Shown piece after piece: positions 20,447-32,000 of a stretch of 32,000 bases of DNA. The notes beneath the pieces were generated by a model, which was not told the DNA's origin, did not search any database, and was given only the letters and a program-made list of their open reading frames with translations. Made by a program: the position numbers and the translations under genes. Positions within the stretch are counted from its first letter, which is position 1, and each line of letters begins with the position of its first letter. The stretch is from Promethearchaeia archaeon (GTDB lineage: Archaea; Asgardarchaeota; Lokiarchaeia; Sigyniarchaeales; SOKP01), in the NCBI GenBank assembly GCA_046497275.1, contig JAWOFX010000054.1, forward strand, positions 1-32,000, written 5' to 3'.

Positions 20447-21270
20447 ATGAAGGAAATTTTAAAAGAGAAAGAAGTAGTTAATAATACACCTCATCCTAAC
20501 ACAAAAAATTCATTAAAAAGAGATCTAAAAAGATTAGGATTAATTAAGGAAGATATCATAATTTTACATACTTCCTTAAGTAAAATTGGATGGACTATAG
20601 GTGGATCTGTAACTGCTATTAATGCTCTGATGGAAGTTTTAACATTAAATGGAGCAATTGTAATGCCGACCTTTACCTCTGATAATAGTGAACCATCGAG
20701 ATGGGAAAATCCTTCTGTTCCCCAAGATTGGTGGCCTTCAATAAGAAAACACATGCCCCCATATAATCTAGAATATATACTCCAACGAGAGGTGTTGGGA
20801 GAATTCCAGAAGTTTTTAGAAAATTCCCAAATGTAATTAGGAGTGATCATCCAATTTCTTCTTTTGCTGCGTGGGGTAAACATGCGAAAGAAATAATTGA
20901 GAATCACAAGCTTGAAGCCGATTTAGGAGAAGGATCACCACTTTCCAAAATTTATGAGTTAAATGGAAAAATCTTATTATTGGGTGTTGGTCATTCTAAT
21001 AATACGTCCCTTCATCTTGCAGAATATAGAAGTAACTATAATGGAAAAGAATTTAGAGATACAGGTTCGGCCATGAATGTTGATAATAAACGAAAATGGG
21101 TGATATGGAGGGAGTTAAATCATAATAGTGATGATTTTAATAAGATTGGGAACGATTATGAACGGAAAATAGGGTATATACCTAAGAAAGTTGGATTAGC
21201 AACCTCAAGATTGTTAAATCAGAGAGATTTAATTGATTTTGCTGTGGAATGGATGAGAAAAAATCGATAA
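20447..21270 (+). pseudogene. AAC(3)/YokD-like N-acetyltransferase interrupted by a frameshift
   Basis: ORF 20447 gives [26 protein letters not shown]. From 20779 another frame reads [33 protein letters not shown]...[31 protein letters not shown], continuing into ORF 20980-21270. The shift lies in TATATA at 20774-20779. Confidence 0.88.
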
Positions 21271-21566
21271 AATTGGTTTAAATTAACTTTTTAAATTAAT
21301 TATTTAATCGATATTTATTAGTGGTTTTTTACAAATAATTGATCTATTTTTATTAGTATTCAAAAAATATTGAATTGAAAATTTCAATTTCCATTATTAT
21401 CAAGTAAACTTTTATAAATTAAAAAAAAGAATTTAGATTTGTCAAAAAAACTTAATGGAAAATTTAGAAATCTTATTATTCAGTAATAAAATTCAACTGG
21501 ATATGATATTTTCTAAAATTTTTTTGAGATTTAATTAAAATTTAATAAAAATTGGAGGTAAATTTA

Positions 21567-23717
21567 ATGTCGAAACCTGATAGAGAAATTGGAAATTTTA
21601 CTTTAAAAGCAATTGCACTTGATACTGGAGGGACTATGACGGATGCATTTATTATTGATGATAAAGGGAATTTTTCAGTAGGGAAAGCGGTTACCACTCC
21701 AGAAGAAGAATCTAAAGGTATATTAAACTCTATTAATGATTCTTTAATTCCTTGGAAAATTACCATTGATCAAGCTGGTGGGGGTGTTGATGCATTGGTA
21801 TATTCAGGTACAGCTATGTTGAACCGTTTATTAGAAAGAGAAGGAAATTCTAATATTGGAGTTATAATAAATGCAGGTTTTGAAGATTTACATAGATTAG
21901 GAAGAGCTCTTCAGTGTTGGATATGGCTTGATTATGGAGGACGTCTACATGCTCGTGAACATGAACATCCTGAACCTCTAATATCTCATAAGAATATCAA
22001 AGGTGTGAGAGGGCGAATTAATTTTTGGGGTGAAGAACTCATTCCCTTATATAAAGACGAAGCAGAAAGGGCTGTGAATGAATTATTAGATATGGGAGTT
22101 GATAGTATATGTGTATGTTTATTGTGTTCTTATATGAATCCTCGACAAGAAAAGGCAGTCGCGAGAATCGCTAAAAAAGCAATGAAAAAACGAGATATTG
22201 ATATACCTATAGTCTTATCTAGTGAGCATAATCCGGTAAGAGGAGAAACCCCTCGATTGAACGCATTAATAATTGAACAATATGCTGCTGAGCCTTCTCG
22301 AGCTCAAATGATTGATATTGCAGAAAAGCTTAAAAATAAGGGAGTAACAGCACCATTAAGGATATTAACTTCATATGGAGGAACGATTTCTCCTTATCAT
22401 AAAACTCTTATTCCTACAATGGTTTCAGGACCAATAGGAGGGATGATTGGGACAAAGTTTCTCGCTGAGACCTATAATATTACTAATTTAGTTTCTTCAG
22501 ATGTGGGTGGAACAAGCTTCGATGTAGGTATTTTAAGTCAACGATATATACCTACTAAATGGGAATCTAGTCTAGGAAGATTTATATTAAATATTCCAAT
22601 GATCGCATTAGATTCAATTGGAGCAGGTACGGGAATGTATGTAAGATATAATGATATTTCAGGCAGATTAGAATTTGGACCTGAAAGCGCTGGTCATTTA
22701 ATAGGTGTATGTAATGAGAATTCAGGAGTAGAAATTGTTACAATGACAGATTGTAGTTTAATTTTAGGCTATATAAATCCAGAATACTTTTTAGGGGGTA
22801 GAATTAAATTAAATAAAGAGAGAGCCTATGAATACATTGAAGAGCAGCTAGCAGAGCCTTTAAATGCTGATGCATATAGTACTGCACGAGGTTCTTTAGA
22901 TTTAATCGAAATTAATATGAGAAACCACCTTAATGGAATGATTCAAGGATTAGGGTTTAGACCAGAAAATTATACTTTAGTATCTTTCGGAGGAGGGGGA
23001 CCATTACATGTGGCAGGATATGCAAGTGGTCTGAAATTTGAAAATATAATGATACCAGAATGGGCTCCTGCATTTAGTGCATTTGGCTGTGCGTGTGCCG
23101 ATCATTCTTACCGTCATGAAAAATCCGTTGATTTAATAATCACTCCTTCAGGAGATCTAAATGCTGCTGTCGCGATGATGCTTAATGCTACATGGTCAGA
23201 ACTCAAGAAAGATATTATAAAGGAATTTAAAAAAGAAGGAAGGGATCCAGAGGAGATGGTATTTCAACCGTCCTTACGGATTCAATACTTAGGTATGTTA
23301 GATGATTTAGAGGTTGAATCTCCTTTTGAGGTTGTTAAAGAAGAAGATCTATCAGTCCTTACAAAAAAATATGATGATCTTTTCGAACAAATATTTAGAA
23401 GAGGTACCAAAAGCCCAGAACTGGGTTATCATATAACCAAAGCTGTTGCAACAGGCATAGTTCCTGTACCCAAACCTAAACTACCAGATGATCAAGAGAT
23501 GGGTAAAACTCCTCCTGAAAAAGCATCGAAAGGATATAGGGATATCTTTTGGGAAGGAGGATGGCATGAGGCTTCCCTTTGGGAAATGAGTCTGCTGCAG
23601 TGTGGTAATATAATTGATGGTCCATCAGTTATTGAAGCACCTGCTACTACCCTTCTTGTGCCTCCAGGATACCGTGTTAAACTAGATAATCATAGAATTT
23701 TTCATATGGAGGTGTGA
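21567..23717 (+). CDS. acxA: Acetone carboxylase-like beta subunit (hydantoinase A/oxoprolinase family, ATP-binding)
   Basis: DTGGTMTD, SGPIGG, SDVGGTSFDVG, GAGTG, FGGGGPLH, IDGPSVIEAPATT. ATG 21567 lies behind GGAGGT (21554-21559). Confidence 0.85.
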   Translation: MSKPDREIGNFTLKAIALDTGGTMTDAFIIDDKGNFSVGKAVTTPEEESKGILNSINDSLIPWKITIDQAGGGVDALVYSGTAMLNRLLEREGNSNIGVIINAGFEDLHRLGRALQCWIWLDYGGRLHAREHEHPEPLISHKNIKGVRGRINFWGEELIPLYKDEAERAVNELLDMGVDSICVCLLCSYMNPRQEKAVARIAKKAMKKRDIDIPIVLSSEHNPVRGETPRLNALIIEQYAAEPSRAQMIDIAEKLKNKGVTAPLRILTSYGGTISPYHKTLIPTMVSGPIGGMIGTKFLAETYNITNLVSSDVGGTSFDVGILSQRYIPTKWESSLGRFILNIPMIALDSIGAGTGMYVRYNDISGRLEFGPESAGHLIGVCNENSGVEIVTMTDCSLILGYINPEYFLGGRIKLNKERAYEYIEEQLAEPLNADAYSTARGSLDLIEINMRNHLNGMIQGLGFRPENYTLVSFGGGGPLHVAGYASGLKFENIMIPEWAPAFSAFGCACADHSYRHEKSVDLIITPSGDLNAAVAMMLNATWSELKKDIIKEFKKEGRDPEEMVFQPSLRIQYLGMLDDLEVESPFEVVKEEDLSVLTKKYDDLFEQIFRRGTKSPELGYHITKAVATGIVPVPKPKLPDDQEMGKTPPEKASKGYRDIFWEGGWHEASLWEMSLLQCGNIIDGPSVIEAPATTLLVPPGYRVKLDNHRIFHMEV

Positions 23718-23719
23718 AA

Positions 23720-25936
23720 ATGGATAAAAACGAAATTGGTTGGGATGGAAAAAGCTTAATAGAAATGTTTGAAGAAAGTGAAAAATTAATCAATGAAACG
23801 GGAAAATATTATGGCATAGATATATTAAGTTTGAAAGAGAGGAACCCATTTAGATATGAGAGATCATATGCGAGCTTAAGGGGTGCGTTAGTGTCTGCAA
23901 GGGAGACAGCATTACATATTGCTGCTTCGCCTATTGTGAAAGAAATTGGTGAATTATGTTTTGCTTTATATACTCCAGAAGGCGACTCCATAGTAGTTTC
24001 AACGGGTATACTCGTTCACGTTCATACTATGAGTGAAGCGATAAAATTTATGATACAACAGGATTATGAAGATGACCCTGGGATAAATCCCGGAGATATT
24101 TTTTTAAATAATGATCCAGAATGCGGAAATGTTCATACTACAGATGTACAAACTATCATACCCATTTTCTGGAGGGATGAATTAATTGGATGGGCTGGTG
24201 GGGTCACACATCAAATCGATTCAGGGGGTATTACTCCGGGTCATGATCTAGTTGCAGCAATTCAAAGATTTGATGATGGAGTATATTATACGTGCCGAAA
24301 AATTGGATCAAATGATAAAATTTGGAAAGATCATATGATCAATGCTCGCCGATCGGTAAGAACACCATTATACTGGGAACTTGATGAGAAATGCAGATTA
24401 GCCGGTAATCTTATGATTAGAGATGCAGTACTAGATTTTATAGAGAAAGAAGGAATTGATTATTATAAACAGTTTATAAGAGAAGCAATTGAAGAAGGAA
24501 GAAGAATCGTCTTAAAAAGAGTAAAAGAGCGATTAATACCCGGTAGATATCGAGCAGCATCTTTTTTTGATGTACCATTCAAAGAAGAAGCGTGGCAACC
24601 TAAAGCTAAAGTAGATAAAGTAACAAATGAGCCAATTGAAATAATTATTGATAAAGATGGCAGACTTTCAATAGATTTTGAAGGGGCTAGTGGACCAGGT
24701 CCAAATCCTATGAATTGTGGAAAAGGAGCAATGGAAGGAGGTCAATGGGTTTTACTAACTCAAATATTAATTTACGGAGATAAAGTTAATGATGGAGCAT
24801 ATTTTGCAGTTGAAAAAAATTATCCCTTAGGAACTTGGTGTAATCCAGGCGATCCATATTTAAGTTATCAAAGCCCTTGGGGAAATCTTATTCCAGCCTA
24901 TACTGGGATGATGAAATGCCTTTCTTTTGGATTATACTCTCGTGGATATCGTGAAGAGGTTGTCCCAGGGTATGGATTTACGGGTGATGCTATACAAGGC
25001 GGTGGGATTTACTCGAGTGGGCCATTAAAGGGAGATAGATGGGCTTTATCTACTTTTGAGATTAGTGGGCAAGGTCTAGGTGCTAGTGCTGTGAGAGATG
25101 GGCTGGACTGGGGATATGCGATGTGGAATCCTGAATCAGATTTAGGAGATGTTGAAACATGGGAGTTATTTCAAGGAGGGATTCCTTATTTATCTCGAAA
25201 AGTAAAGCCTAACACGGCGGGACATGGTAAATATAGAGGTGGGGCAAATTATGCTGGTGTAGCGATGATTGCAAATTCAGAAGATGTGGACTTTTTTGGA
25301 GCGCGAGAGGGAATGGTATTCCATGGATCAGGAGGAATGCATGGCGGTTATCCCCATGGAACAGGATATAGATTAATTGCTAAAAACACAAATTTTAAAG
25401 AAATTATTGATAACCAAGAAGAATATCCTTTAGGAGATCCGGATCCAAGTAACGGTGAATTTGAAAGATTATTAAAAGGTGATATCATTAGAAAACCTTA
25501 TTCTTCAATATACCCTGTGACATTAGAAAATTATGACTTAGTTCACTATGCTTTAAGTGGAGGACCTGGATATGGTGATCCTTTGGAAAGACGTCTTGAT
25601 AAGGTACGACAAGATTTGAATGATGGAATATATACTGATGATATTGTTTATAATGTCTATGGGGTAAAAGCGGGATATAATGAACATGAAAAAAGCTGGA
25701 GTATTAATGATGAGAAAACAGAACAAAGACGTGAGGATTTGAGAAATGAACGAAAAGAGAGATCAATGACCTATGAAGAATTTTGGAAGTATGAAAGAGA
25801 TAAGATAACAGAAAACAAATTGACTGAACCGGTAAAAAGAATGTATTCTGAGAGTTTAAACCTTTCAGAAAAATGGAAAAGATTATTCATCGAATATTGG
25901 GAATTACCAGAAGATTTCAAATTGGAGGTGAAATGA
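23720..25936 (+). CDS. acxB: Acetone carboxylase-like alpha subunit (hydantoinase B family, metal-binding)
   Basis: ASPIVKEIGELCFALYTPEGDS, NNDP..GNVHTTD (HxxD), GGVTHQIDSG, GHGKYRGG, GGPGYGDPLER. ATG 23720 lies behind GGAGGTG. Confidence 0.88.
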   Translation: MDKNEIGWDGKSLIEMFEESEKLINETGKYYGIDILSLKERNPFRYERSYASLRGALVSARETALHIAASPIVKEIGELCFALYTPEGDSIVVSTGILVHVHTMSEAIKFMIQQDYEDDPGINPGDIFLNNDPECGNVHTTDVQTIIPIFWRDELIGWAGGVTHQIDSGGITPGHDLVAAIQRFDDGVYYTCRKIGSNDKIWKDHMINARRSVRTPLYWELDEKCRLAGNLMIRDAVLDFIEKEGIDYYKQFIREAIEEGRRIVLKRVKERLIPGRYRAASFFDVPFKEEAWQPKAKVDKVTNEPIEIIIDKDGRLSIDFEGASGPGPNPMNCGKGAMEGGQWVLLTQILIYGDKVNDGAYFAVEKNYPLGTWCNPGDPYLSYQSPWGNLIPAYTGMMKCLSFGLYSRGYREEVVPGYGFTGDAIQGGGIYSSGPLKGDRWALSTFEISGQGLGASAVRDGLDWGYAMWNPESDLGDVETWELFQGGIPYLSRKVKPNTAGHGKYRGGANYAGVAMIANSEDVDFFGAREGMVFHGSGGMHGGYPHGTGYRLIAKNTNFKEIIDNQEEYPLGDPDPSNGEFERLLKGDIIRKPYSSIYPVTLENYDLVHYALSGGPGYGDPLERRLDKVRQDLNDGIYTDDIVYNVYGVKAGYNEHEKSWSINDEKTEQRREDLRNERKERSMTYEEFWKYERDKITENKLTEPVKRMYSESLNLSEKWKRLFIEYWELPEDFKLEVK

Positions 25937-25937
25937 A

Positions 25938-26435
25938 TTGCCGAAATATGATAAAAGAACATTAGAGAGATTGATCGAAGGTGATTTAAAATGGGAAGAA
26001 TTAAAACCTATTATTTCAGGGGATAAGGATACAAATAGATTTGATATGATCTTAGAAATACTTCAAGAAAAAGTTCCGTGGGAAGAAAAAATCATTTTAC
26101 CGCTTCATGAACACCTTTATATTGTAGCGAAAGATGGTAATAGGATTGTTAAATGTGATTGCGGATATGAATTTGGAGATTACAAGGAAAATTGGAAGAA
26201 AAAATGCCGAATCCATGTCAGAGATAAGATTGAAGATATAGAAGAACTCTATCCAAAAGATATGGGGTGCGATCCAGATTGGATGGAAATTAGAGAATAT
26301 TATTGTCCGGGATGTTTCACTTTATTAGAGGCAGAAAGCGTCCCTCCAGGATATCCTTTAGTTTTCAACTTCTTACCAGAAATAGATGTGTTTTATAAAG
26401 AATGTTTAGGAAAAAAGGCTCCAGATAAAGAATAA
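25938..26435 (+). CDS. acxC: Acetone carboxylase gamma subunit
   Basis: LPLHEHLYIV...KCDCGYEFGDYKENWK...IREYYCPGCFTLLEAESVPPGYP.VFNFLPEID, with two Cys pairs for Zn. TTG start behind GGAGGTGA (25924-25931). Confidence 0.9.
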   Translation: MPKYDKRTLERLIEGDLKWEELKPIISGDKDTNRFDMILEILQEKVPWEEKIILPLHEHLYIVAKDGNRIVKCDCGYEFGDYKENWKKKCRIHVRDKIEDIEELYPKDMGCDPDWMEIREYYCPGCFTLLEAESVPPGYPLVFNFLPEIDVFYKECLGKKAPDKE

Positions 26436-26454
26436 TAAACAAATTAATATTAAC

Positions 26455-26479
26455 TTCTTTTTTTATTTTATTTTATTTT
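26455..26479 (+). terminator. T-tract terminator after the acx operon
   Basis: TTCTTTTTTTATTTTATTTTATTTT directly after the acxC stop. Confidence 0.5.
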
Positions 26480-26498
26480 GAAGAATCTTTAAAAAATT

Positions 26499-26770
26499 TT
26501 AGAAATTTAATTCATATTGCTTTTTCTCATCATAAATACTTTTTAATTTAACCTTTTTCAATCGTTTTAATATTTCTCGTTGATTATCTTTTTTATCAAA
26601 TATTTTTGGAATATTTTTCCTAAACTCATGATATTGCCATAGGCTATTTGATGAAAAAAATCATCCTCTTCAAAATTAAGTGCGAAAATATTTGCTATTC
26701 CTTCGATCGCCTTTTGTATATCTTTTATCGATTTAATAGGATCAATGACTTTTTTAATATTGCTTCGACA
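26499..26770 (-). pseudogene. Frameshifted paralog of the 93-aa hypothetical protein at 27994-28275 (not in ORF track)
   Basis: Manual translation IKSIKDIQKAIEGIANIFALNFEEDDFFHQIAYGNIMSLGK / NIPKIFDKKDNQREILKRLKKVKL aligns without gaps to the 27994-28275 protein (36/65 identical by hand). One A is missing in the run at 26614-26618, and there is no in-frame ATG. Confidence 0.85.
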
Positions 26771-26784
26771 ATCAGTTTAAATTA

Positions 26785-26921
26785 ATATATAAATGTTCTC
26801 AATGCGGAAGTTTTCAAAAAATCTTACTCGATACCAATCTTGCATCTGGGAAATAAAGAATTTCAAATGTTCAAAATGCGGCGGAACAACAGTAATTCTA
26901 AAAGATTTTAAAATTGCCTAA
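26785..26921 (+). pseudogene. Possible degenerate small zinc-ribbon gene (CxxC...CxxC) split by a 1-nt frameshift
   Basis: IYKCSQCGSFQK in one frame and NLTRYQSCIWEIKNFKCSKCGGTTVILKDFKIA* in another; they join if the A6 run at 26816-26821 had one more A. No start codon seen. Confidence 0.35.
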
Positions 26922-26998
26922 AAATCTTCTAATTTTTAGCCTTTTTTTTTTATGGAATTTGCCAAAATTTATATTAGGTTGGTTTTATATTCCTATCG

Positions 26999-27595
26999 TT
27001 GAAAATGTTTAGAAAAGGAAAAGAACTTGTAAAAAAATTGAAAGAAGCAGAAAAAAATTTGGAAAAATATCGTATTAAACATACCGTAGAAAAGGCAAAA
27101 AACCTAAATTTATCTTTTAAATTAGAACCTTTCTCTAAATACAAACTTCGGGTATACGGAGAGAATAGCATAGGTAAAGCCTTAACCTCTGGGGGTGTAG
27201 GAGCGGAGAAAGTTGTAAGCGTAGAACCTATTTATGTTGTAGGGGAATTCACTATTTGGGTGGATGGAAAAAAATACGATACCTTTAAATTTAATAAATC
27301 AGGAACTAGTTCTGAATTAACTCGTACAGTAATTCAAGGCTCAAAACTATATGATTTTAAACCCACAGAAGAAACTGAGATAACCATCGAGGGTACTAGG
27401 TATAAAGGAAAACATCTTGGCGTCGAGATATTTAAAGACATTCCAGAACACATAGAATTGGACGTAGAGGAAGAAATGGAGCAAGCAAAAGATTATACGA
27501 AAAACCTTATGCGTCAACTGAAGATACTACTTACTATTGCGGCAATCGTTCTTACTGGCTTGATTGTTACCTTTATAATTCTCATAGCAATTTAG
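26999..27595 (+). CDS. Hypothetical tail-anchored membrane protein
   Basis: 198 aa, soluble beta-rich core with a single hydrophobic helix at the extreme C-terminus. The ATG at 27005 is an alternative start. Confidence 0.65.
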   Translation: MKMFRKGKELVKKLKEAEKNLEKYRIKHTVEKAKNLNLSFKLEPFSKYKLRVYGENSIGKALTSGGVGAEKVVSVEPIYVVGEFTIWVDGKKYDTFKFNKSGTSSELTRTVIQGSKLYDFKPTEETEITIEGTRYKGKHLGVEIFKDIPEHIELDVEEEMEQAKDYTKNLMRQLKILLTIAAIVLTGLIVTFIILIAI

Positions 27596-27790
27596 ATTTT
27601 GGAATAATGATCTAAGATCTTATCTTTTTTTTTGATTCTTTTATACCTCAGAAATAAGATATATCTTAGTTCCAATCTTTAGAATTTATCATAGAAAAAA
27701 ATAAACTAATTTCTCCATTATTATAAATGTAAAATCTTTGAAAAAATTGAAACTTTGAAGTTATGAGAAAATCTAACCATACGAATTACA

Positions 27791-27862
27791 GTTTTCAACC
27801 TCTTGCCTGAGATAGATGTATTTTATGAAGATTGTTTAGGAAAGAAAGCTCCAGACAGATAA
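27791..27862 (+). pseudogene. Remnant 3' end of a second acxC copy
   Basis: Translates VFNLLPEIDVFYEDCLGKKAPDR* versus acxC VFNFLPEIDVFYKECLGKKAPDKE* (26361-26435). 58/69 nt identical. There is an in-frame TGA at 27764-27766 upstream and no start. Confidence 0.92.
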
Positions 27863-27993
27863 TTTATAAATAATTATTAATTCATTATTTTCTTTTTTTT
27901 ACCTTAAGATATATCATTATATCGAACATCCAAAGAAGAAGTAGAAATTATTTCCAATTTTTATTTATTATTATTTGAAAGAAACGAATAATA

Positions 27994-28275
27994 TCACTTT
28001 AAAAAATTACTAAAAGGTTTCTTTTTTTGATATTGATTTAATTTAACCTGTTTAAGTTCTTTTAGTATTTTTGATTTGTTTTCCAAGTTTTCAAATATTT
28101 TTGGGATATTTTTTGCTAAGATGGTGATATTATCATATGCTGCGGTACGAAAAAAGTCGTCTTCATCAAGACTCATCTCAAATATTTTTGCTAATCCTTT
28201 GATTGCTTCTTTCATATCACTTATTGATTTTAAAGAATTAATGGTTTCCATGGAATCAACTTGTTCAGAATTCAT
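27994..28275 (-). CDS. Hypothetical small helical protein (gene X), convergent with the acxC remnant
   Basis: 93-aa ATG-started ORF; conservation with its paralog at 26499-26770 supports that it is coding. Confidence 0.7.
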   Translation of the reverse strand: MNSEQVDSMETINSLKSISDMKEAIKGLAKIFEMSLDEDDFFRTAAYDNITILAKNIPKIFENLENKSKILKELKQVKLNQYQKKKPFSNFLK

Positions 28276-28512
28276 TTTTAAAAAGCTTTTTATTTATTCT
28301 TATGATATTATAAATACTAATTGTATAAAAATGTGCAGAAAAAGGTATTAATCTTTATATAGTCATGACTCTTTTCATCACTTTCACTAATATTTTGCAT
28401 ATAAAAAAATCATAAAAATTTAATACTGTTCCATTTTAAATACTGATTCAAATGCTTATTGATATAATTTTAGGATAAAATTTTAGAATTTTACATTATT
28501 TGTGTATATAAT

Positions 28513-28911
28513 ATGGAAGAAAACAATAAAGAAGAAACAACAATAAAGGAGTATATTGGTCCCGGATTGGGATTAATTGGAGGGATAATGCTTCTTTTGG
28601 TTTCTATTCTCTTTTTCTCAGAATATAGTCTTATATTAGAATTTTATCCTTTATTAATAGTTCCAGAAATAATCACTCCTATTTTGGCAATTAGTGCCAT
28701 TATTTCTTCATTATTGACTATGAATAGAAGGAGCTATGGAAAATTTATTCTTTTTTTTGTAGGAATAGTTGCTTGTATCACCAATTTCATCCCAATTCAA
28801 ACTATACCTATTGATGGTGGAATGTTGAATATAACAATAAGCGGAAACTTTTTTATTATTGATCCTCTCCTTGTTGCTGTGGGGGGTCTTTTTAGCCTGT
28901 TTTTTAATTAA
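28513..28911 (+). CDS. Hypothetical membrane protein (about 4 TM)
   Basis: 132 aa, mostly hydrophobic helices after a short acidic N-terminus. Confidence 0.6.
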   Translation: MEENNKEETTIKEYIGPGLGLIGGIMLLLVSILFFSEYSLILEFYPLLIVPEIITPILAISAIISSLLTMNRRSYGKFILFFVGIVACITNFIPIQTIPIDGGMLNITISGNFFIIDPLLVAVGGLFSLFFN

Positions 28912-28992
28912 GATTAAAAAATCAATCTTTATTTTGAAGATCTAATTTTTAAATAAAGTAAAAAGAGGATTAAGAAAGATGTTCTTTCATCA

Positions 28993-30057
28993 TTATTTCA
29001 AAAGGAGATCCCAATCCAATGTATCTTTAACTAAATCAACAACAATATCAATTTCGTCCTCTTGTATTCCAGGTTTTATTTTTTCCATATTCCTAAGGGT
29101 AGTATAAGTATCAGAAGGACTAAGAATAATCGGAATATTTTTATTGTTAGCGGCAGTAATTACGGAAGTGTCAGGTTTAATAAATCCCGTTAAGATCAAG
29201 CAAGACACATCCTCATTAAGAGCAGTGAGAAGAAGATCAGACCTGTCACCTCCAGTAATAAACGCAACATTTTTGACCTGTCGTAAATATTTTAAAGCCG
29301 ATTGGGGACCCATAGCTCCCACTAAATAAGTTTCTGCTCGATTTTCGAGGGCAGACGAAGCAGCTTCATTTATTAATGTTCCTCCAATTGACTCTTTGAT
29401 CTCTGATACGCGTGGAGCTAATAATTTTAGACTTTTTCCTACAATTCCAATTATAGGAATGTCATATCTTTCAATATGTTCTTCTTTTAATTCTTTAATT
29501 CTGGCGAAATATTCATGATCAATCTTATTAAAAATAATTCCTTTAATTTTGATGTTTCGATAATCAAAATATTTCTTAGTAAAGAACAAATTATCGATAC
29601 ATTTATCTGACGATTCCGTTTCAATGTATACTAATTCATTTATAGCTAATGCTTGAGCAATACTTACATCATCTACCCCTACACGTATATATTTCTTTAT
29701 ACTTTGAGCGCCCTCTATTATGATATAATCATATTGCTTTTGAGCCTCTTGGTATGCGTTTTTAATATCATTCAGAAAAATTTCCTTTTGGTCAGCATTA
29801 ATAAGATCGATATAATAACATTCTGGAATTGAAATTGGAGAGAGTATATCATATGGAAGTTCTGTAATATCTACACAACTTTGCAAGAATCCCACATCAG
29901 TATCTGCTTTATTGGTAAACGTTGATTTTGGGATTCCAATAGGTTTAAAATACCCAATTTTTTTACCTTCTTTTTTCAATTTCTGTATAATACCGACAGA
30001 AAGTAAAGTTTTTCCCACTCTCTCGTTTAATGAACATAAATAAATTCCTTTAGCCAT
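28993..30057 (-). CDS. Phosphotransacetylase N-terminal (BioD-like + DRTGG domain) family protein
   Basis: P-loop-like RVGKTLLS, IGYFKPIG, IIIEGA, and ITGGDRSD...LILTG of the DRTGG domain. No Pta catalytic domain. Confidence 0.85.
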   Translation of the reverse strand: MAKGIYLCSLNERVGKTLLSVGIIQKLKKEGKKIGYFKPIGIPKSTFTNKADTDVGFLQSCVDITELPYDILSPISIPECYYIDLINADQKEIFLNDIKNAYQEAQKQYDYIIIEGAQSIKKYIRVGVDDVSIAQALAINELVYIETESSDKCIDNLFFTKKYFDYRNIKIKGIIFNKIDHEYFARIKELKEEHIERYDIPIIGIVGKSLKLLAPRVSEIKESIGGTLINEAASSALENRAETYLVGAMGPQSALKYLRQVKNVAFITGGDRSDLLLTALNEDVSCLILTGFIKPDTSVITAANNKNIPIILSPSDTYTTLRNMEKIKPGIQEDEIDIVVDLVKDTLDWDLLLK

Positions 30058-30128
30058 TGTTATCTTCTCTAATTTTTTATTTTTAATCTATTTTATTATT
30101 TTATAAATTCTTTAATATTTTTATCAAT

Positions 30129-32000
30129 CTAATTTTCTTTTCGTGAAATCACACATTTAATATCCACAGCACTATATCCATCAATAAAAGATAATAGGGG
30201 ATTAATGTCTATTTCGACAATTTCAGGGAAATCATTCACTAATTGTGCCATTCTTTGAAGTACTTCGATTACAGCATCTATATCTGATGGCTGTTCTCCC
30301 CTTACGCCTTGAAGTAAACGATATACTTTAGTTTCTTGTAGCATAGATATTGCATCCTCTCTCGTAAATTTATATGAAAGTGCAAATGCTACATCTTGTA
30401 AAAAATTTGCATATATACCTCCTGATCCTACCATCAACATAGGACCAAATTGTGGGTCTCTGGACATTCCTAAAATTAATTCATTCACTTTTTCTTTCTT
30501 GCTAAAATCAATCATTTCTTGGACTTCTACTCCATAAATTTTAGCATTTTGTGGTCCAAATTTTTTTGTTTTATTTACTATTTCAATGTAGGCTTCAAAA
30601 GCTTCTTCAGGTTTATTAATATTTTTTACAATTCCCCCGATATCCGATTTGTGGGTGATCTGGGGGCTGACAATTTTCATTATTGCTTTTCCTATTTCTG
30701 GTTGTATTTCCATAGCTTCACGTGGCGTATTTGCTAATCTTGATTTAGGAGCTTTTATTCCGTAATATTCAAACATCTCTGCAGTTTCTGTTCCTATTAA
30801 AACTGTTCTTTCATCTTTTCTGACATTCTGGATTATCTCACTCACTCTTTCCCGGTTTACTTCAAATTCGGGGATATCTAACTCTGAAATTGGTTTTTCA
30901 TCAAGATACCATCTCCTTTTTATCATAGTTTTTAGTGAATGAGCTCCTCGATCTGGAAATTGATAACAAGGAATATAATGGTCTTTAAGGAACTTTTTTC
31001 CTTCTGCAATTGATTTTTGCCCTATAAAAGAGCAAATTAATGTTTTATTTGCAAGGTGCTTCGATTTTGTTTCATAAATTAACTCAGCCACTTTAGTAGG
31101 TTTCGTTTGTGGTTGGGGTGTTAATATTATTAATACTCCTTCCGTATTAATTTGATTTTGATCAAGATTCTCATCATTAGCTTTACTATTAATTCCAAAT
31201 AAAGTTTTCAAGGTAAAAATGTATCTTTCTGGAGTAGCATCTCCTACTATATCTACGGGATTAAAAATAGCAGCTTCTTCAGGTAAATTTTCTCTAAGGC
31301 TGTGCAAAATATTTTCTGAAAATTCAGCTAATTTTAAACCCTCTGAAGAAAAAGCATCAGTGGCAACTATTCCAGGACCACCAGCGTTAGTTATAATTGA
31401 GAATGAATTTTTTTTTGGAATCGGTTGAAACAAAAATATTTCGCCAAAATCGAAGAGATCCTCAATTGTTTCTGCTCTTATTACCCCACATTTATTAAAT
31501 GCTAAAGAATACGCTTTATCTGAGCCAGCTAATGCTCCTGTATGACTGGATGCTGCTCTTGCGCCTGCCTCACTCTTTCCAGCTTTTAATATTACAATTG
31601 GTTTTTTCCTGGAAGCTTTAGGCACAACTTCTAAAAATCTATCTCCATCTTTGACATTTTCTAAATAGCATAGAATTACTTTTACATTATCATCATTCGC
31701 AAGGTATTCAATAAAATCGACGGCACCTAGATCAGCTTTATTTCCCAAACTTATATTACAATAAAATCCATAGCTTTGTTCCATAGAATAGTCCATCATA
31801 CCTGTAAGCATCGCTCCAGATTGAGAAATCATAGCAATCTCTCCTTCTTTAGGTGTCTCCATCGCAAAGGAGCCATTATAATGAGTTCCAATAAAACCTA
31901 AGCAGTTGGGACCAAGTATTCTCATATTATATTTTTTTGCGACTTCTTTTAATTTTTCCTCTCTTTCTGCCCCTTCGCCACCAATTTCCTTAAAACCCGC
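30129..32000 (-). CDS. ADP-forming acetate/acyl-CoA synthetase, fused alpha-beta type (5' end outside window)
   Basis: The frame is open to the window edge (AGFKEIGGEGAEREE...MRILGPNCLG). Motifs ISQSGA, SLGNKAD, ASSHTGALAGSD (phospho-His), TNAGGPG, NPVD, and an ATP-grasp region MKIVSPQITHKSDIGG...DINPL. Confidence 0.93.
   Translation of the reverse strand, partial: AGFKEIGGEGAEREEKLKEVAKKYNMRILGPNCLGFIGTHYNGSFAMETPKEGEIAMISQSGAMLTGMMDYSMEQSYGFYCNISLGNKADLGAVDFIEYLANDDNVKVILCYLENVKDGDRFLEVVPKASRKKPIVILKAGKSEAGARAASSHTGALAGSDKAYSLAFNKCGVIRAETIEDLFDFGEIFLFQPIPKKNSFSIITNAGGPGIVATDAFSSEGLKLAEFSENILHSLRENLPEEAAIFNPVDIVGDATPERYIFTLKTLFGINSKANDENLDQNQINTEGVLIILTPQPQTKPTKVAELIYETKSKHLANKTLICSFIGQKSIAEGKKFLKDHYIPCYQFPDRGAHSLKTMIKRRWYLDEKPISELDIPEFEVNRERVSEIIQNVRKDERTVLIGTETAEMFEYYGIKAPKSRLANTPREAMEIQPEIGKAIMKIVSPQITHKSDIGGIVKNINKPEEAFEAYIEIVNKTKKFGPQNAKIYGVEVQEMIDFSKKEKVNELILGMSRDPQFGPMLMVGSGGIYANFLQDVAFALSYKFTREDAISMLQETKVYRLLQGVRGEQPSDIDAVIEVLQRMAQLVNDFPEIVEIDINPLLSFIDGYSAVDIKCVISRKEN

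Follow-up and report, generated by a model that had tools for sequence, protein, structure and literature searches.

The first 32 kb of contig JAWOFX010000054.1 of a Promethearchaeia archaeon (assembly GCA_046497275.1) were analysed as one window of 32,000 nucleotides (nt). Its acetone carboxylase-type operon, acxABC, ends in an unusual arrangement in which the last codons of acxC and a small gene facing them, here called X, are each present twice. We conclude, with a probability of about three in four, that this locus is a recombination scar left by the one-sided homologous import of DNA from a second lineage, lineage D, and not a decayed tandem duplication. The first copy resembles lineage D and the second the resident lineage; the passage from one type to the other lies inside the intact acxC gene on the left and at a joint between positions 27789 and 27790 on the right.

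The genome under study (G000) is a metagenome bin of 3.85 Mb with 30% G+C, 98.9% completeness and 4.4% contamination. It was compared with two close metagenomic relatives forming the resident (N-type) clade and retrieved by protein searches, R64 (contigs L064/L066) and R65 (contigs L065 and L067), a small sample of two short R65 contigs and one R64 contig. Lineage D is represented by two metagenomic contigs, L068 (D1) and L069 (D2), with a mutual identity of 95%, which were found through members of the acxC protein cluster. Other genomes of the family (G005, G006, G014, G017, G018 and G002, the closest species representative) were also used in the comparison. A Logan contig from a third study (SRR7614767; 97.2% identical to the window over 26617-27853) stems from a different strain, hereafter the 97% strain, in which 2.8% of the positions differ from the window.

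A repeat search returned, as the two longest direct repeats of the window, a match of 26360-26464 with 27790-27899 (81% nt identity with gaps, blastn E 2e-23) and, collinear with it, a match of 26542-26747 with 28037-28243 (71% nt identity, E 5e-25). The first begins within acxC (25938-26435, plus strand), the gene of the gamma subunit (PF08882, acetone carboxylase gamma, E 3e-39), whose final 23 codons (26361-26429) recur at 27791-27859 with 58 of 69 nt and 19 of 23 residues identical and with the stop codon retained. The second joins two members of the X family. Copy 1 thus consists of the end of the working acxC gene (tail1, 26361-26435, plus strand, the last 24 codons and the stop), a T-rich spacer between convergent genes (spacer 1, 26436-26498, partly included in the repeat 26360-26464) and an X pseudogene (X1, 26499-26776, minus strand). 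Copy 2 consists of an orphan acxC end (tail2, 27791-27862, plus strand, the last 23 codons and the stop), a second spacer (spacer 2, 27863-27993) and an intact X gene of 93 amino acids (aa) (X2, 27994-28275, minus strand). An initial annotation, made by a model from the letters of this DNA, had described the recurrence of the acxC end, the X paralogue lying downstream of acxC in the same order and orientation, and a broken X in copy 1 set against an intact X with only an acxC end in copy 2, and all three observations are borne out by the alignments and by the absence of a start codon in X1.

The orphan tail2 has no start codon, and its frame is closed upstream by a TGA at 27764-27766, eight codons before tail2; it is no longer translated. 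Its ending, ...APDR-stop, is the ancestral form, as found in R65 and G002.

Copy 1 is of the type of lineage D, which holds the orthologous locus, with PadR-HAAS genes upstream (73% nt identity), DRTGG-acd downstream (78%) and a single operon. Contigs L068 and L069 are collinear with the window from 21404 to 27789, the blastn match stopping exactly at 27789. Identity to lineage D amounts to 0.76-0.86 across most of 21525-25500 (0.70 and 0.89 in single windows) and to 0.90-0.95 for most of 26103-27720, with 0.85 at 26663-26851. Tail1 shares 61 of 69 nt with D1, versus 58 of 69 with both R65 and tail2, and carries the extra codon that precedes the stop in lineage D; together with spacer 1 it is 87% identical to D1. 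From acxC to its own X, lineage D is laid out as a broken X1, a zinc-ribbon relic, an intact gene (orf196) and a 28-codon Cys-rich open reading frame (ORF), and the corresponding features follow acxC in the window.

The first of them, X1, ends with a stop codon at 26499-26501 and lacks a start codon, the frame running into an in-frame TAA at 26777-26779 with no ATG, GTG or TTG after it. A single nt is also missing within 26608-26626. X1 shares 69% identity with the X1 relic of lineage D and 48% with X2. The loss of the start codon is common to G000, D1 and D2 while the other lesions differ, so X1 was dead on arrival. In the 97% strain the relic shows indels at 26595 and 26652 and 4.3% differences, against 0.8% in orf196.

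A zinc-ribbon relic follows at 26791-26921 (plus strand; 42-codon ORF at 26793-26921) and is collinear with D1. Its two CxxC motifs lie in different frames, CSQCG in one and CSKCGG in another, so that it looks like a frameshifted four-Cys zinc ribbon; the 97% strain differs here at 5% of the positions and has one extra nt at 26881. It is probably a pseudogene that would have travelled with the imported block. The next gene, orf196 (27005-27595, plus strand), is intact, encodes a 196-aa protein with a C-terminal membrane helix, and occupies the same place in L068 and L069. It differs from the 97% strain at five positions (0.8%), all of them third codon positions, whereas the relics and spacer differ by 4-7%, and its synonymous divergence (dS) from D1/D2 is 0.17-0.21 (G000-D1, 0.17) with a non-synonymous divergence (dN) of 0.04; the gene is under purifying selection. 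Searches of 60 family genomes gave no homologue, and among 1.84 billion representatives of 50% clusters none came up beyond its own cluster. An earlier view of orf196 as an orphan gene was dropped when the D-clade copies were found, the earlier blanks having been due to sampling and clustering. The imported stretch ends with the first nine codons of the small Cys-rich ORF (27763-27789, plus strand), which has 28 codons in D1 and is cut by the joint, as shown by the alignment of G000 with D1/D2 up to 27789.

Copy 2, in turn, is of resident type. Tail2 matches the end of the working acxC gene of R65 at 64 of 69 nt, against 58 of 69 for tail1, and the segment 27790-27914 matches R65 (L067:3712-3835) at 85-87%. 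From about 27930 on, spacer 2 matches the X side of R65 and R64; R65 carries a gene of about 2.5 kb between its two halves of spacer-2-like sequence. Since the acxC end and spacer of R65 match tail2 and spacer 2 better than tail1, copy 2 is the resident end. The differences point the same way: 2 synonymous and 3 non-synonymous changes separate tail2 from R65, as expected for recent drift in a young neutral relic, and 7 synonymous and 4 non-synonymous changes separate tail1 from tail2, a pattern of divergence as working genes in two lineages. At the aa level, X2 shares 82% identity with its counterparts in R64 and R65, both of which lie beside orf132-DRTGG-acd. The flank to the right is of resident type throughout, 90-92% identical (nt) to R64 over 8.7 kb, and is marked by orf132 (28513-28911, plus strand), a membrane protein gene found in the same place in R64 and R65 (81-85% aa identity) and 68% identical (nt) to orf135 of D1/D2. 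On the left, L067, from the same sample as L065, carries acxA'-acxB-acxC and overlaps L065 through the roughly 2.5-kb surface-protein gene. Up to 25500, acxAB is about 93-94% identical (nt) to R65 and about 82% to lineage D. The background dS between G000 and the R64/R65 clade is uniform, at 0.31-0.33 in acxA and 5' acxB, 0.37 in the DRTGG gene (R64) and 0.31 in X2 (R65).

The arrangement into which this import would have come is found in other genomes. In G002, acxC is followed 85 nt further on by a convergent X; G005 has the same layout, and so does G006, with an insertion sequence (IS)-like gene in between. In this genus, the convergent acxC-X pair is therefore the older layout.

The left boundary was located by a change of nearest relative inside acxC. 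For positions 25938-26179, dS is 0.65 between G000 and R65 and 1.64 between G000 and D1; for 26180-26429, it is 1.45 and 0.28, respectively. Site patterns place G000 with D1 at 26180-26219, with R65 at 26227-26268, and predominantly with D1 from 26277. The nearest relative therefore switches at 26180-26280, within an intact gene and without an indel, 180 nt to the left of the repeat boundary. The right boundary is resolved to a single position: the sequence is of D type up to 27789, where the L068 and L069 matches end, and is the resident acxC end from 27790, where the R65 match starts. Beyond this joint, D1 runs on with the rest of the small Cys-rich ORF and G000 with the acxC tail. Between the two boundaries, spacer 1, the X1 relic, the zinc-ribbon relic, orf196 and nine codons of the small ORF were added, and the resident acxC is missing from about 26180-26280 up to a point 72 nt short of its stop. 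An earlier placement of the left crossover at about 25510 was dropped when the D contigs moved it to 26180-26280.

On this evidence we propose the following course. The resident, N-type ancestor would have carried acxABC directly followed by a convergent X, the layout seen in G002 and R65. DNA of a relative of the D clade would have entered the cell once this lineage had parted from R65. Two observations indicate this timing: the block differs less from D1/D2 (dS 0.17-0.28) than G000 does from R65 in the background (0.31-0.37), and it is absent from R64 and R65. At its left end, the incoming DNA would have paired with the resident acxC, with a crossover within about 26180-26280 that left a mosaic of donor and resident sites, while its right end would have been joined without homology at 27789/27790, in the resident acxC, 72 nt before the stop. 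About 1.6 kb of D-type DNA would thereby have overwritten the end of the operon, acxC remaining whole with a donor tail. About 1.4 kb would have been added (spacer, dead X1, zinc-ribbon relic, orf196 and nine codons of the small ORF), and the resident tail2, spacer and X2 would have been pushed downstream unchanged. We infer the direction from lineage D to the G000 lineage, the manner in which the DNA entered the cell, a single event, and a molecular route resembling homology-facilitated illegitimate recombination (HFIR).

Several observations weigh against this account or fit it less well. When the short repeats are taken by themselves, topology tests fail to reject a sister relation of copy 1 and copy 2 (approximately unbiased test, p-AU 0.37-0.45), and the suggested import is argued from branch lengths, dS and collinearity rather than from topology. 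The direction of transfer is argued from parsimony, R64 and R65 being without the block and D1 and D2 both having it, on few contigs. A second discontinuity lies at 25507/25513 (maximum chi-square 49.4, a value reached in 0 of 1000 permutations), where the dS between G000 and R65 passes from 0.31-0.33 upstream to 0.92 for 25511-25936 and 0.65 in 5' acxC, with no affinity to D1. The D import does not account for this break, which means that there was more than one exchange, or that R65 is recombinant there; a further exchange from an unsampled lineage, in G000 or in R65, is likely. At the joint itself, at most one base is shared when D1 is taken as donor and R65 as proxy for the recipient, a result that neither supports nor refutes an illegitimate join. 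A Cys codon, TGT, stands both at 26403-26405 in the working acxC and at 27833-27835 in tail2, where every acxC compared, including those of R65, D1 and D2, encodes Trp. The 97% strain has TGT in its working acxC too, but TGG in tail2, and the TGT of tail2 is either a recent coincidence or a micro-conversion from tail1; with TGG in the tail of D1 as well, the shared TGT was dropped as proof of a duplication within the lineage.

Lineage D raises a further point of this kind, as it has two X genes and, beside the second, a 21-nt match to the acxC end. This match (L068:8919-8940, also in L069) encodes ...KAPDK, lies between the small Cys-rich ORF and the second X, and has a score reached in 2 of 500 shuffles. 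Together, the X pair and the match hint at an older duplication or at an earlier event of the same kind in lineage D. In the X tree, X1, the second X of lineage D, X2 and the X of G002 form a polytomy at 34-48% identity; the tree is unable to settle the history of the X pair because X evolves too fast.

Among the other explanations, the one that survives best is nevertheless improbable: two paralogous acx loci, each with an X, would have coexisted in one ancestral genome, ectopic recombination between them would have produced the mosaic, and the second locus would then have been lost. A mosaic is indeed the product of recombination between two homologous loci, and G014, a genome of another genus, has two acxC matches (C41:17047-17526 and C34:13848-14327), one with an internal TAA. 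However, the D-type operon is the sole operon at the orthologous position of a separate lineage, with flanks at 73-78%; a full acxC is present once each in G000 and in all six other genomes of its genus; and the dS of the block to D1/D2 lies below that between G000 and R65, which fits a recent arrival and not an old paralogue. A short match to an acxC end in G016, taken at first as a second relic, was rejected, as it is an acxC cut by the end of a contig. Recombination between paralogous acx loci had been offered by the initial annotation as a second option, of which the recombination of two loci comes close to the data and the placing of both in one genome does not. Its picture of two operons at this place, each followed by X, is likewise to be revised, as G000 has a single acx operon and each of the two acx loci is that of a different lineage, at a chromosomal position common to both.

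A tandem or segmental duplication within the genome, of the acxC end, spacer and X or of the whole operon with X, followed by reciprocal decay, was the explanation first put forward, and we consider it quite improbable. It would account for two collinear copies of equal order and orientation and for tail differences that are mostly synonymous. Moreover, the copies group together (87/87) when G002, G005 and G006 are the only outgroups, their sisterhood also survives topology tests that include closer relatives, and lineage D also has two X genes at the locus. Yet each copy is closer to an outside relative than to the other, tail2 and X2 to R64/R65 and tail1 and X1 to D1/D2. The switch in dS lies inside the single-copy acxC and is inexplicable by a duplication starting at 26360, and 26103-27720 is 90-95% like lineage D, against a backbone of about 82%, with collinearity to D extending to 27789. 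To the left of 27790, there is no similarity to acxA, acxB or the 5' part of acxC, and a search of G000 for further acxA or acxB relics found none. The two copies are also separated by about 1 kb of unique spacer, of which no second copy was found after X2. Nor was the decay reciprocal as had been supposed, since X1 had lost its start codon beforehand, in the donor lineage, and the body of the resident acxC was removed by the event itself.

An assembly chimera joining pieces of two co-occurring strains or species, with an artefactual repeat, is hardly credible: the genome is a metagenome bin with some contamination and donor-like and resident-like lineages do co-occur in at least one sample, but the joint 27789/27790 offers no shared sequence for an assembler to switch on and is spanned by a second NCBI assembly (GCA_964385245.1, 99.86% over 23005-31587), by a Logan contig of another run (SRR14492185, 100% over 26979-28554) and by that of the 97% strain. 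With the same joint in three independent assemblies, one of them of a 97%-identical strain, the layout is not an assembly artefact, and the misassembly that the initial annotation had asked to exclude is set aside.

D1 (L068) and R65 (L065, L067) come from the same Joint Genome Institute (JGI) sample, 3300022699, a sediment; donor-like and recipient-like types therefore co-occur in nature.

With the import from lineage D as the preferred explanation, the relation between X and the operon has to be judged afresh. The initial annotation had suggested, on the grounds of co-duplication, that X is a functionally linked partner of acx, an argument that fails because the copies do not come from a duplication. 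The distribution of X also speaks against it: of the 61 genomes of the taxonomic family, 54 carry X-family members, one to six each, which lie mostly away from acx; genera g3, g4 and g6 have X while acxC was not found in them; and genus g8 has acxC in 4 of 4 genomes and X in 0 of 5. G000 itself has three further X-family genes or matches, none near acx (C172:31218-31484, C103:9715-9999 and C91:4877-5062). What is seen is that a convergent X lies at most 3 kb downstream of acxC in G002, G005, G006, G017, G018, R65, D1 and D2, an arrangement that recurs in three genera; four more genomes have X on the acxC contig at a distance of up to 15 kb, and in the rest it is elsewhere or absent. The link of X with acx would accordingly be a conserved neighbourhood rather than a co-occurrence, between genes that are predicted not to be co-transcribed.

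As to the nature of X, the ratio dN/dS of X2 is about 0.33, and its AlphaFold model shows three helices with a predicted local distance difference test (pLDDT) score of 73. X has no Pfam family, the three-helix model has no Foldseek match at E <= 0.001, and the ESM Atlas gave no usable lead. The X1 relic as query in a word-based protein search found nothing.

The kind of event proposed here is already known; what is new is the host and the resolution. HFIR is known in transformable bacteria and in conjugation of E. coli (PMC3240628; see also de Vries and Wackernagel 2002, as cited in PMC5361080). As in HFIR, one end is homologous, here in acxC at 26180-26280, and the other is joined without homology, at 27789/27790; foreign DNA is gained beside the anchor and some resident DNA is lost. 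In contrast, HFIR was shown experimentally in bacteria, whereas the present event is deduced from comparative sequence in an uncultivated Asgard archaeon, and no microhomology is seen at the joint. A second parallel is provided by the effector-immunity arrays of the Vibrio cholerae type VI secretion system (T6SS) and by Rhs loci, for which a model has been proposed in which 3' gene ends are displaced and old 3' regions and downstream genes are stranded as orphans (PMC5361080). There too, a module anchored in a conserved upstream part overwrites the resident 3' part, the old downstream gene and in some cases the old gene end are shifted and kept, and the outcome resembles a tandem repeat of a gene end with a small gene. 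Those systems, however, are toxin-immunity arrays driven by conflict, while the present locus combines a metabolic carboxylase subunit with X and has one orphan end. Tandem duplication with reciprocal loss, finally, would likewise give two copies that agree in order and orientation and that each combine an intact part with a broken one; here, the copies come from two lineages, X1 was broken before its arrival, and it was the event and not decay that took away the resident acxC body.

No genetic system exists for Asgard archaea, and their ways of exchanging DNA are poorly known. If the import is real, the locus is a clean natural record of homologous and illegitimate gene flow between Asgard lineages about 18% apart, in which a donor-like type, a recipient-like type and the recombinant are all readable, with one crossover mapped to about 100 nt and the other joint to the base. 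It would imply that lineages about 18% apart at the locus recombine via a short homologous anchor and can bring in non-homologous genes such as orf196. It also calls for caution, as a one-sided replacement that leaves the old gene end in place can mimic a relic tandem duplication with reciprocal decay, and in such a case the argument that neighbouring genes are partners because they were co-duplicated fails. The biology of the acx operon itself is little changed by the finding.

The spacer between acxC and X holds insertions elsewhere and has the look of an insertion hotspot. In G006, it holds an IS-like ORF of 426 aa (L025:4434-5714), and in R65 (L067:3985 to L065) a gene whose product, about 810 aa long, has beta-helix repeats and a membrane helix. 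It may be, though we think it unlikely, that this spacer is a recurrent landing site, to which the two X genes and the 21-nt acxC-end match of lineage D would also belong, that the acxC end has been overwritten more than once, with orphan ends and additional X genes left behind, and that the fast-evolving, multi-copy X is a small protein of a conflict or addiction type and not a bystander. If so, the locus would be comparable in behaviour to Rhs and T6SS loci with their arrays of orphan 3' ends.

The rest of the operon consists of acxA (21552-23717, plus strand; Pfam Hydantoinase_A, E 9e-66) and acxB (23714-25936, plus strand; Pfam Hydantoinase_B, E 6e-71). The three genes abut or overlap and have the three-subunit architecture of acetone carboxylase-type operons, and homologues are named acetone carboxylase subunit gamma in the sources. 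With bacterial AcxABC, the operon shares adjacent Hydantoinase_A, Hydantoinase_B and PF08882 gamma genes (hydantoinase/oxoprolinase superfamily, zinc-binding gamma subunit); it differs in that the G000 gamma subunit has Cys ten residues before the C-terminus, a position occupied by Trp in all relatives compared. On sequence grounds the Asgard operon is taken to be of acetone carboxylase type, its substrate and an ATP-dependent ketone carboxylation being predictions only. A literature search on acetone carboxylase in Asgard archaea found nothing relevant.

Upstream of the operon, the interval from the HAAS gene to acxA (20447-21270) differs by lineage, with two ORFs in G000 and a HEPN and nucleotidyltransferase pair in D1 and D2 (L068:1554-2281). 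Just before the joint, the segment 27718-27780 diverges by about 20% from the 97% strain, compared with 0.8% in orf196. Nine of its differences (27718, 27730, 27739, 27742, 27748, 27751, 27754, 27757 and 27760) share one codon phase. Eight of them, from 27730 to 27760, fall inside a 19-codon minus-strand ORF (27780 to 27724) and are synonymous there; 8 of the 9 differences from 27718 to 27760 are also synonymous in the plus frame that runs into tail2. No paralogue of this 19-codon ORF, of the zinc-ribbon relic or of orf132 was found in G000.

In two metatranscriptome runs, there are contigs for acxC, for part of orf196, for 27632-27782 and for the 5' region of X2; they are without cover over the X1 relic, although such contigs show neither strand nor absence. 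The contigs from the RNA libraries of two metatranscriptome studies (salt lake) both stop at 26419, 14 nt before the acxC stop, and continue into adapter, whereas the DNA contigs continue.

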